Positions 8,229 through 10,030 of a stretch of DNA of 24,033 bases are shown piece after piece. Made by a program: the position numbers and the translations under genes. This DNA is from a virus (lineage: Duplodnaviria > Heunggongvirae > Uroviricota > Caudoviricetes). Positions within the stretch are counted from its first letter, which is position 1, and each line of letters opens with the position of its first letter. Below the pieces are notes generated by a model. That model had not been told where the DNA came from. It saw nothing but the letters and a program-made list of their open reading frames with translations, and did not search any database. Where the stretch lies: IMG/VR virus record IMGVR_UViG_2690316176_000008; one strand, written 5' to 3'.

Positions 8229-9734
8229 TCATGGCATAGCCATGAGCATTTTCACGTCCGCATCACCGTCTGCTGACGTCTGTGGCACGCCACCCTGTAC
8301 CGCTGCCGGTGAATGGTTCGCCATGATGCGTTCAAACAGGGCGGTTGTGGATGCAGAGACCGGTTCTGCCTTACCTGATCCCGCAGCCAGCACAGCCCGG
8401 GCGCTCTCCACAGTCATTCCCGGGCAGGCAGCCAGCTGTTCAGCCTGCGCCTCAGCCCCTTTTGCCTCATCCAGTGCCATGATCTGATCACGGAGTGAGG
8501 GTCCGGCATCCGCCTGCGGTGAAGCAGCCAGGATCGGGCGGGCTTTTTCCACCGTCATCTCCGGCATCGCCGCCAGCGTTGCCGCCAGTTGTTCACGACC
8601 GTTCGCTTCTTCACACGCCATAATGCGATCGGCTTCACTCTGCGTGGATGCCACCGGCTGCTGCGGTGCCGCCGCGGCCAGAATCGCCCGGGCCTGTTCA
8701 ACGCTCATGCCCTGTTGTCCTGCCAGCATCGTGGCAAGCTGTTCACGTCCTTTCGCTTCCTGGCATGTCAGGATCCCCATCACTCGCTGGTTCTCCTGCG
8801 CGGCGGCTTCCGTTGCAGTTAATTGCGGCATAGTGCCTCCTCTGACATTACTGTTCAGCGCCGTGGCCATCACACTGATGGCATCCGACGCATTGACTAA
8901 TTCATCCGCCAGCCCGGCATCAATGCCGGACTGACCTTCAAAAACGGCGGCCTCTGTTCCCGTGACGGCATCAACAGACAGACCGGTAAACATGGCCACT
9001 TTTTCGGCAAACATCCGGCGCGCCGCATCAATGCGCTGCTGCATGTCCTGGCGAACCTCTGCCGGTAAGGCTTCAAACTGATTGCCATCCACCTTGTGCG
9101 CCCCTGAGTAAATCAGCGTGATATCCACACCGGCCTGCGCCAGATGACCGGCATAGCTGACATGGCTCATCATCACGCCAATGGAGCCGATACGGGATGT
9201 CTGGGTAACCAGCCGTCGGGAGCAGGCCGACGCCAGCAGCATGGCTGCAGAACAGGCCGTGTCATTGCACAGTGCCCAGACCGGCTTCTGCTGACGGAGG
9301 CGGTAAATCATGTCAGCGCAGTCAAACGCGCCGGCGGCCTGCCCGCCCGGACTGTCAATGTCCAGCAGTATGCCCCGCACCTGGCTATCTGCCATTGCCT
9401 GCTGAAGACAGGCGACAATGCCGTCATAGCCAGTCATTCCGGAAAATGGCCGCATCCCCCCCAGCCGGTGCACCAGCGTGCCGGTCACCGGCAGTACCGC
9501 AATACCGTTCACCACCCGGTAAACACGGGCCGGTCGTTTACCTCCGGCCATGTACTCGTCCGTTTCAGCCAGCATTCCGGGAGCATCAAGCTGTACCTGC
9601 TGTTGTGGTACCGAAAGACTTGCTGCCCCCATCTCGCGCCCGAGCGCGCAAAAGAAAACCCGCGCATAGGCGGGCTCCAGAAGCAGCGGTTCATTGAATG
9701 CTGCGGCAATAATGTGTGAAAGATTACGTCTCAC
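8229..9734 (-). CDS. C: prohead protease / scaffold protein C with nested Nu3-like C-terminal region (S49/ClpP-like peptidase)
   Basis: 501 aa. NLSHIIAAAFNEPLLLEPAYARVFFCAL, GAFDCADMI, SIGVMMSH, GAHKVDGN and AIDAGLADELVN match lambda gpC. The C-terminal third carries three tandem copies of an I-M-x-x-x-E-A-K-G-R-E-Q-L-A...M-T/S-V-E-x-A-R-x-I-L-A-A module (scaffold-like). Start codon is GTG at 9734. Confidence 0.88.
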   Translation of the reverse strand: MRRNLSHIIAAAFNEPLLLEPAYARVFFCALGREMGAASLSVPQQQVQLDAPGMLAETDEYMAGGKRPARVYRVVNGIAVLPVTGTLVHRLGGMRPFSGMTGYDGIVACLQQAMADSQVRGILLDIDSPGGQAAGAFDCADMIYRLRQQKPVWALCNDTACSAAMLLASACSRRLVTQTSRIGSIGVMMSHVSYAGHLAQAGVDITLIYSGAHKVDGNQFEALPAEVRQDMQQRIDAARRMFAEKVAMFTGLSVDAVTGTEAAVFEGQSGIDAGLADELVNASDAISVMATALNSNVRGGTMPQLTATEAAAQENQRVMGILTCQEAKGREQLATMLAGQQGMSVEQARAILAAAAPQQPVASTQSEADRIMACEEANGREQLAATLAAMPEMTVEKARPILAASPQADAGPSLRDQIMALDEAKGAEAQAEQLAACPGMTVESARAVLAAGSGKAEPVSASTTALFERIMANHSPAAVQGGVPQTSADGDADVKMLMAMP

Positions 9735-9819
9735 GTGGTGTTGTCTCCTCTTTCTGCAATCTGCGAAGCTGGCGATCGGTCAGACTTAAATGCCTGGCAA
9801 CTTCAGTCTGCGTAGCCAC
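9724..9819 (-). pseudogene. small terminase (Nu1-like) N-terminal stub, 31 codons, truncated at the junction with C
   Basis: Immediately downstream of the cosB repeats, a GTG-initiated frame encodes ATQTEVARHLSLTDRQLRRLQKEETTPRET, an HTH-like segment with the same hydrophobic pattern as the lambda Nu1 N-terminus. It stops at a TAA overlapping the GTG start of C. No large terminase, W or portal gene follows. Confidence 0.5.
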
Positions 9820-9854
9820 TCCTCACCTCGCAAAAACTCTCACCTCACAATCAC

Positions 9855-10030
9855 AACAAAACCGGTCATGTCCGGTTTACATGTCCATTTTTTGCGCATG
9901 TCCGGTTCACAGAAGACCTGTTTTTATATTTTTCATATAGTTAACTTGAAGAGAAACCGGACATGGTTCCCGGAAAATTTTCATAAATAGCGAAAACCCG
10001 CGAGGTCGCCGCCCCGTAACCGGTCGGATC
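9855..10030 (-). other. cos site (cosQ-side flank, cosN, and a cosB-like array of R repeats with an AT-rich spacer)
   Basis: Minus strand reads ggttacgGGGCGGCGACCTcgcgggttttcgctatttatgaaaattttccgg, which I recall as the lambda cohesive-end region (cosN at 10003..10014). Downstream are one inverted copy (9955..9966) and two full direct copies of a roughly 10-bp motif CATGTCCGGT (9867..9876, 9897..9906), plus a partial copy at 9880..9888. An AT-rich, IHF-like spacer (9911..9950) separates the inverted copy from the direct ones, mirroring the lambda R3-I1-R2-R1 layout but with different R sequences. Confidence 0.8.

Follow-up and report, generated by a model that had tools for sequence, protein, structure and literature searches.

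The locus described here raises a simple question, namely how a lambdoid prophage came to carry a cos site directly beside its head genes in the apparent absence of the enzymes that would act on it, and whether this site is retained because it is used or because it happened to be spared. The window, by which we mean the whole 24,033-nucleotide stretch of DNA that was analysed, is the last 24 kb of contig CXZH01000030.1 (E. coli draft assembly GCA_001277735.1, NCBI). This contig is 41,759 bp long, is listed for two samples, and terminates in an IS end. According to the original prediction, the terminase, W and portal genes had been deleted at a tight junction while cos remained complete, leaving a prophage that cannot package its own DNA and that might be packaged in trans by another lambdoid phage.

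The cos site

The sequence GGGCGGCGACCT, which had been proposed to be the lambda cohesive end, has a single exact match in the 24-kb window, and cosN is identical in this DNA, lambda and phage 21. In an alignment to lambda with its two ends joined, the flanks of this site are identical over the 33 nt downstream and carry two mismatches in approximately 33 nt upstream. Past the downstream 33 nt, the sequence diverges from that of lambda and phage 21, with the layout kept. The cosQ heptamer, which lies just outside the coordinates covered by the original prediction, is also identical to that of lambda (phage 21 was aligned at its left end only), and we take it to be the packaging-termination subsite, a role carried over from lambda.

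The cosB-like array that had been noted between cosN and the terminase gene is equally well founded. Matches to the repeat AAACCGGACATG with two or fewer mismatches occur 8 times in the 24-kb window, and five of these fall inside the 107 bp between positions 9859 and 9965. Shuffled controls yielded 2.13 matches per whole window, with none of 100 shuffles reaching 8. The order and orientations of these elements between cosN and terS (R3-I1-R2-R1), in which the repeats are putative TerS-binding sites, agree with the phage 21 annotation and with the layout of lambda. Furthermore, the cos region was compared across 36 distinct variants, drawn from 71 metagenome loci and 84-98% identical to the window: cosN, R3 and the R1 palindrome show little or no variation, and some spacer positions vary. 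Judged by these sequence features, the window carries a full lambda-type cos composed of cosQ, cosN and cosB, at which cleavage by terminase is predicted. The entire site is 100% identical to that of an intact cousin prophage with full-length packaging genes.

Table 1. Features of the cos region and head module, all on the minus strand, in window coordinates.
Feature	Position	Strand	Basis or remark
FI::J' in-frame fusion ORF, 1,069 aa	3498..6707	-	Second deletion, 8,767 bp; junction 6340-6341, TA microhomology
Major capsid gene E, intact	6759..7787	-	Pfam Phage_cap_E
Head decoration gene D, intact	7845..8192	-	Pfam HDPD
Gene C, S49 prohead protease/scaffold, 501 aa, intact	8229..9734	-	Pfam Peptidase_S49; 98.4% DNA identity to phage 21 genes 5/6
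31-codon ORF: TerS codons 1-23 (9819-9751), last 8 portal codons, native portal stop	9724..9819	-	Three-way alignment with the intact cousin L004; tblastn
GAGGAG Shine-Dalgarno of gene C, directly downstream of the junction	9745..9750	-	Read from the sequence; phage 21 annotates an RBS at the equivalent place
Deletion junction, AA 2-bp microhomology	9751..9752	-	blastn map against L004 and base-level three-way alignment
cosB imperfect palindrome AAACCGGACATGACCGGTTT, one repeat per orientation, R1 position	9859..9878	-	Nearly invariant in variants
cosB repeat GAACCGGACATG, R2 position, inverted relative to R3	9897..9908	-	Layout alignment and repeat count; mostly conserved in variants
AT-rich segment at the place of lambda/phage 21 IHF site I1 (putative IHF site)	9921..9945	-	Alignment position only
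cosB repeat CATGTCCGGTTT (module strand), R3 position	9954..9965	-	Layout alignment and repeat count; invariant in variants
cosN 12-nt cohesive-end sequence	10003..10014	-	Single exact match in the window; invariant in metagenome variants
cosQ heptamer GGGTCCT	10038..10044	-	Alignment with lambda right end; nearly invariant in 36 variants

Deletions in the packaging and tail genes

The intact cousin mentioned above, prophage L004 of E. coli Z1323HEC0108, has the gene order TerS (169 aa), TerL, a W-like head-tail joining protein, portal and the S49 protease C. Comparison by blastn shows that window positions 6340-9752 correspond to L004 positions 18994-22405 at 99.88% identity, and that positions 9751-17123 correspond to 26497-33869 with one mismatch in 7,373 nt. 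Exactly 4,093 bp of the cousin are absent from the window at this point, and the loss of terminase, W and portal is thereby confirmed against a relative that is 99.9-100% identical on either side. This alignment places the endpoints at TerS codon 24 and 8 codons before the portal stop, such that TerS codons 24-169, TerL, W, and all of portal except its last 8 codons are gone. Sequence to the right of the junction matches the Z1323HEC0108 prophage at 100%, and gene C to its left is 98.4% identical to genes 5/6 of phage 21. No complete E. coli genome among 5,426 searched by megablast holds the region unbroken.

Had the missing genes been found elsewhere in the same element, a rearrangement rather than a loss would have been indicated. 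We searched the window by tblastn with the proteins of the cousin (TerS, TerL, W, portal, FII, Z, U, V, H and J), along with a 23.2-kb stretch of the source contig that reaches 6.5 kb into the chromosome past the left end of the window. TerL, W, portal, FII, Z, U, V and H are absent from both, and the only matches are to TerS residues 1-28 at the junction and to J residues 212-1158. By this sequence comparison, the event is a true deletion rather than a rearrangement.

The open reading frame that spans the junction had been described as a 31-codon stub of a small terminase, and the description is correct for its first part. Window positions 9751-9819 match the opening 69 nt of the L004 TerS gene (169 aa) at 100% identity, the tblastn match noted above lies within TerS, and the product of the parent gene matches Phage_Nu1 (PF07471) over residues 49-149 (E = 2.5e-18). 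The rest of the frame has another origin. Its product reads MATQTEVARHLSLTDRQLRRLQK followed by EETTPRET, and these final 8 residues are the C-terminus of the portal protein, making the ORF a chimera. Likewise, its stop codon is not located on the GTG start of gene C as had been stated; the frame runs 11 nt into gene C (9734-9724), just as the native portal frame does. The part of TerS that matches Phage_Nu1 is wholly deleted, and with 23 of 169 residues left the stub fails to retain the DNA-binding and the TerL-interaction/assembly domains of TerS. Pfam helix-turn-helix (HTH) matches to the TerS N-terminus are below threshold, those to the surviving residues in the 31-aa stub by a wide margin (E = 0.047-0.072), and so the HTH label given to the stub is reasonable by analogy and statistically unsupported. 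No record of the 31-aa product was found by exact-protein look-up, and no gene had been called for it. In all likelihood, the ORF is an accidental TerS'::portal' fusion from which no function is to be expected.

The N-terminus of TerS of this type includes MATQTEVARHLSLTDRQLRRLQKLPG. The cousin TerS is 45% identical to lambda Nu1 over its C-terminal 92 residues only, and by sequence its N-terminal DNA-binding part is unrelated to Nu1, which fits the differing cosB repeats. Specifically, cosN is identical and the cosB layout is shared, whereas neither the cosB repeat AACCGGACATG nor the N-terminal domain of TerS is related to its counterpart in lambda or phage 21. These differences imply a packaging specificity other than that of lambda or phage 21.

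Downstream of the junction, genes C, D and E are intact. A protein identical to C is present in 563 blocks on record, and it lies directly behind TerS-TerL-W-portal in nine of the ten places listed. Beyond gene E, a second deletion relative to L004 has taken everything from FII up to and including codon 211 of J, so that FI, cut after residue 122, continues in frame at J residue 212. This loss of the tail block, from FII to the start of J, had escaped the original prediction.

A Pfam scan of the ORFs gives the gene order Q, lysis, cos, C, D, E, FI::J', lom and stf. What is retained, therefore, comprises Q, the lysis genes, C, D, E, lom, the side tail fibre gene and the effector gene NleB (SseK_NleB, E = 5e-171), and what is absent comprises the terminase, the portal, the head-tail connector and the tail shaft. 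NanS lies at 13482-15335, across cos from NleB. Past NleB are two small ORFs and then genes with Pfam matches to BPD_transp_1, ABC_tran, Peptidase_M20 and JmjC_2/ROXA, which are presumably the chromosomal genes potB, potA, pepT and roxA. The early region of the element (int, xis and replication) lies past the contig end. With its lambdoid gene order and its loss of virion-essential genes, the element is a defective (cryptic) lambdoid prophage. With TerS, TerL, W, portal and the tail genes deleted, the prophage can neither package itself nor build a virion, and the earlier statement that it cannot package its own DNA follows from the deletion now confirmed and is solid.

Occurrence of the junction and comparison with other defective prophages

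Only one contig on record, CXZH01000030.1, encodes the FI::J' protein. A 626-nt query across the terminase junction is covered to at least 80% in two of 5,426 complete genomes, both of which are from dog isolates and carry a different deletion. Neither the metagenome contigs nor the genome_contigs set contains the exact 24-mer that bridges the junction. By comparison, the control 24-mer, taken from undeleted sequence at this point in the terminase gene, was found in 92 metagenome contigs; the genome_contigs set, which consists of GTDB species representatives, contains neither the junction nor the undeleted 24-mer and is uninformative for this purpose. Because the junction was found in no other genome searched, and because divergence from the intact cousin is close to zero (one mismatch in 7.4 kb), sequence comparison marks the junction as private and the deletion as recent.

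Other members of the same prophage family have undergone comparable events. One deletion of 2,460 bp, which extends from TerL to the 3' end of portal, is present in 13 closed chromosome records from 12 strains (the FDAARGOS_448 group), and another of approximately 3,444 bp, which extends from TerL into C, is found in the dog isolates Z1323PEC0011 and Z1323PEC0013. Like the deletion reported here, both fall in the TerL-W-portal-C block, leave cos in place and show a short junction overlap. Unlike it, both leave a full TerS. On these sequences, deletions in the packaging block recur independently among E. coli genomes, with the qualification that the searches included cos in the query and could find cos-retaining deletions only.

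When these events are considered jointly, three of the four deletions examined (both of those in the window and that of the FDAARGOS_448 group) yield in-frame fusions. This is a weak hint of selection against out-of-frame junctions, expected by chance with a probability of ~0.1, and it is not significant; the sample is too small for us to propose that in-frame junctions are selected.

The DLP12 element of E. coli K-12 offers a more familiar parallel. Both prophages keep lysis genes, ylcI (DUF3950) and cos, their cosQ-cosN segments are 96.7% identical over 91 nt, and the deletion in each begins in the packaging genes, which in DLP12 extends to removal of the morphogenesis block. In contrast, the Nu1 homologue of DLP12 (nohD) is full-length, terL persists there as a 309-nt stub that runs into a tail-fibre remnant, and all head genes are lost, whereas the present prophage retains C, D and E together with the first 23 codons of TerS.

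Cos-type satellites such as the phage-inducible chromosomal islands (PICIs, for example EcCICFT073) lack their own terminase, carry a cos of the helper type and are packaged by the helper, a principle matching the one put forward in the original prediction. With a compact size of ~10-15 kb, PICIs encode an integrase, AlpA and a primase/replication module of their own and are regulated in response to the helper. The present element differs in being the truncated late region of a prophage, and no integrase, AlpA or primase/replication module is found among the Pfam-scanned ORFs of the 24-kb window, the early end being located past the contig end.

The closest functional parallel is Sp4 of E. coli O157:H7 Sakai, which is likewise a lambdoid, effector-carrying prophage with an intact cos and no working terminase. 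Sp4 has been shown to be packaged despite this defect, and the activity was credited to the terminase of Sp14, a prophage with an identical cos (Asadulghani et al., 2009; PMC2669165). Sp4 DNA was recovered in DNase-resistant particles, and no transductants were obtained (PMC2669165). The two cases differ in that nu1 of Sp4 is interrupted by an IS while its large terminase and portal genes are present, whereas 4.1 kb of packaging genes plus the tail block are gone from the prophage studied here.

Probable prophage decay and possible packaging in trans

We consider it highly probable that the locus reflects ordinary, recent decay of a lambdoid prophage by illegitimate recombination, and that cos survives passively. 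Recombination at the 2-bp AA microhomology would have removed the 4,093 bp from TerS codon 24 to near the portal stop, gene C would have kept its own ribosome-binding site and start, and the second deletion would have stripped the tail genes. The cos site, located just upstream at the edge of this event, would simply have been left behind. Its survival needs no special explanation because it presents a target of only ~190 bp at the margin of a 4.1-kb deletion. Decay of this kind has already been described in E. coli O157 and K-12, and the element is a new instance of the well-known defective lambdoid prophage.

A different agent of deletion, a satellite embedded in a helper (PMC10111431), was also considered and set aside. 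The junction lacks an integrase, AlpA or an att-like repeat and displays only the 2-bp microhomology.

The original prediction went on to suggest that the element might be moved in trans like a natural cosmid. Packaging in trans is plausible here because this cos/TerS type is widespread, and the idea is already established through Sakai Sp4 and Sp14. A co-resident or superinfecting lambdoid phage that shares the TerS DNA-binding domain could in principle cut at this cos and package from it. If packaging proceeds as in lambda, it would begin at cosN and pass cosB toward C, D, E, FI::J', lom, the tail fibre gene and NleB, and then continue into the chromosome. Useful transfer would also require excision and the formation of concatemers, or a second cos located one headful away, and where such a second cos is missing, termination would fail. 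Moreover, because NleB and NanS lie on opposite sides of cos, their joint transfer would call for a circular or concatemeric form. Helpers of matching type should be common in strains of the sort that harbour such prophages, since the same cos/terS start is present at a coverage of at least 80% in 1,148 of the 5,426 genomes, and a single genome can have it at up to 8 places.

The main alternative to decay is that the prophage is a helper-dependent mobile element, a 'natural cosmid' or proto-satellite that moves NleB and NanS between strains and whose cos is under selection. On this view it would undergo regular excision and replication, and a co-resident lambdoid prophage would supply the terminase and virion proteins that package it through cos. 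We regard this as unlikely. The identity of its cos to that of prophages with full packaging genes, the widespread and often multi-copy occurrence of this cosB/TerS type, and the intact state of Q, the lysis genes, C, D and E are all in keeping with such an element, and Sakai Sp4 provides an experimental precedent. However, that precedent speaks on both sides, as Sp4 was packaged and yet gave no transductants (PMC2669165, Table 2). The junction is known from one contig, recorded for two samples, and from nowhere else searched, leaving no trace of horizontal spread. In addition, the single mismatch that separates 7.4 kb of this DNA from its cousin makes the deletion too recent for selection on cos to be deduced, and the int, xis and replication genes lie past the contig end.

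A related proposal is that the locus represents an early stage in the conversion of a prophage into a helper-dependent satellite that is mobilised by co-resident lambdoid prophages of the same cosB/TerS specificity. On such a path, terminase, portal and tail would have been shed while cos, C, D, E, late regulation and the effector cargo would have been kept. We judge this proposal to be quite improbable.

Finally, because the junction rests on a short-read draft contig, a mis-join of repeated prophage segments at a truly intact locus might be suspected from the 41.8-kb source contig that ends in an IS and from the repetition of C and the cos/terS start within genomes (identical C occurs twice in Z1323HEC0108, for example), but this is scarcely credible given that the two sides have no more than 2 bp in common, much less than any assembler would use as an overlap, that the junction sequence is unique and reads through in frame, that the same contig is recorded for two samples, and that comparable deletions exist in closed genomes. 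With regard to assembly in general, the repetition of C and cos among co-resident prophages could in principle invite trouble, and a 2-bp overlap cannot make a graph join.

Ordinary decay thus remains our preferred reading, and the locus is best viewed as a cleanly resolved case of packaging-module loss in lambdoid prophages of pathogenic E. coli that matters little beyond bookkeeping. The principle of packaging in trans has already been demonstrated for the O157 Sakai prophages. The present deletion has been mapped to the base at both ends, with an almost identical intact relative for comparison, and the locus could become a natural test case for the trans-packaging of effector genes should its source strain carry a helper with this TerS.

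Relationship to the intact cousin prophage

The window prophage and the intact cousin at locus L004 (E. coli Z1323HEC0108) differ at several positions. L004 carries two IS1203/IS3-family insertions (33870-35178 and 39302-40610) that are absent from the corresponding window sites (17120-17123 and 21239-21242), and its major capsid gene has a frameshift, whereas the gene is intact in the window. In addition, the window closes with an IS end (23920-24033) whose position differs from those of the cousin's IS copies. Because of these three differences, direct parentage between the two prophages is excluded in either direction.

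The near-identity of the late regions stops directly past the tail-fibre gene (window 1-1113 versus L004 3886-5000). Beyond this point the window has NleB cargo adjoining apparent potB/potA/pepT, whereas L004 has TccP2 cargo adjoining tRNA-Ser and hyaA. Near-identical late regions with different cargo and chromosomal sites therefore suggest that late modules were recently swapped between prophages occupying different positions in the chromosome.

Deletions and rearranged head and tail genes

A second deletion has removed 8,767 bp from the window prophage, with TA microhomology at the junction (6340-6341). It took out FII, Z, U, V, G, T, H, M, L, K and I together with J codons 1-211, leaving an in-frame fusion gene (see the table).

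Independent deletions have also struck the TerL-W-portal-C block in closed genomes represented by L002 (NZ_CP023960.1) and L003 (NZ_CP148277.1), and both retain cos and TerS. The L002-type deletion is found in 13 chromosome records from 12 strains. In one genome, a C gene identical to that of the window lies without TerS-TerL-W-portal ahead of it (locus L015; GCA_041227445.1, JBGFEP010000005.1, 1-2422). In their place come genes for capsid E, a D-like product, AlpA and a Nu1-family protein of 180 aa, followed by some 1.6 kb without called genes, a layout that resembles helper-embedded satellites (PMC10111431).

Genes and RNAs elsewhere in the window

The DUF3950 gene beside cos has a parallel in K-12 DLP12, where ylcI likewise adjoins cos. 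Between Q and the late genes, the C4/isrK matches and the ORF6N gene look like an antisense-controlled antirepressor module of the P1/P7 type. A hokD counterpart, a ParE/RelE-type toxin gene and a putative antitoxin gene lie at 21551-22304, a region that the cousin prophage does not share past 21720.

Features of the window and of related loci
Feature	Location	Strand	Remark
FI(1-122)::J(212-1158) fusion ORF, 1,069 aa	window 3498-6707	-	product of the 8,767-bp deletion
DUF3950 (YlcI/YnfO family) gene	window 10221-10406	+	directly upstream of cos, opposite strand
sRNA STnc100	window 15558-15748	-	
ORF6N-domain gene	window 18084-18644		directly downstream of the Rfam matches
C4 antisense RNA, isrK, c4 a1/b1 targets	window 18699-18899	-	Rfam matches
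51-aa ORF	within window 21551-22304	-	counterpart of cousin's annotated hokD
ParE/RelE-type toxin, 95 aa	within window 21551-22304	-	next after 51-aa ORF
Putative antitoxin, 79 aa	within window 21551-22304	-	adjoins the toxin
TerL'::portal' in-frame ORF	L002 4525-5772		annotated 'terminase gpA endonuclease subunit'
TerL' joined to C missing its 5' end	L003 4459-4782		two dog isolates

Two minus-strand segments (15558-16074 and 17381-17972) hold STnc100, three tRNAs and an IS200-family transposase accompanied by its STnc490 RNA. The tRNAs are Arg-tct, Arg-tcg and one with a CAT anticodon, which is assigned to Met by ARAGORN and to Ile by the RefSeq annotation of the cousin.
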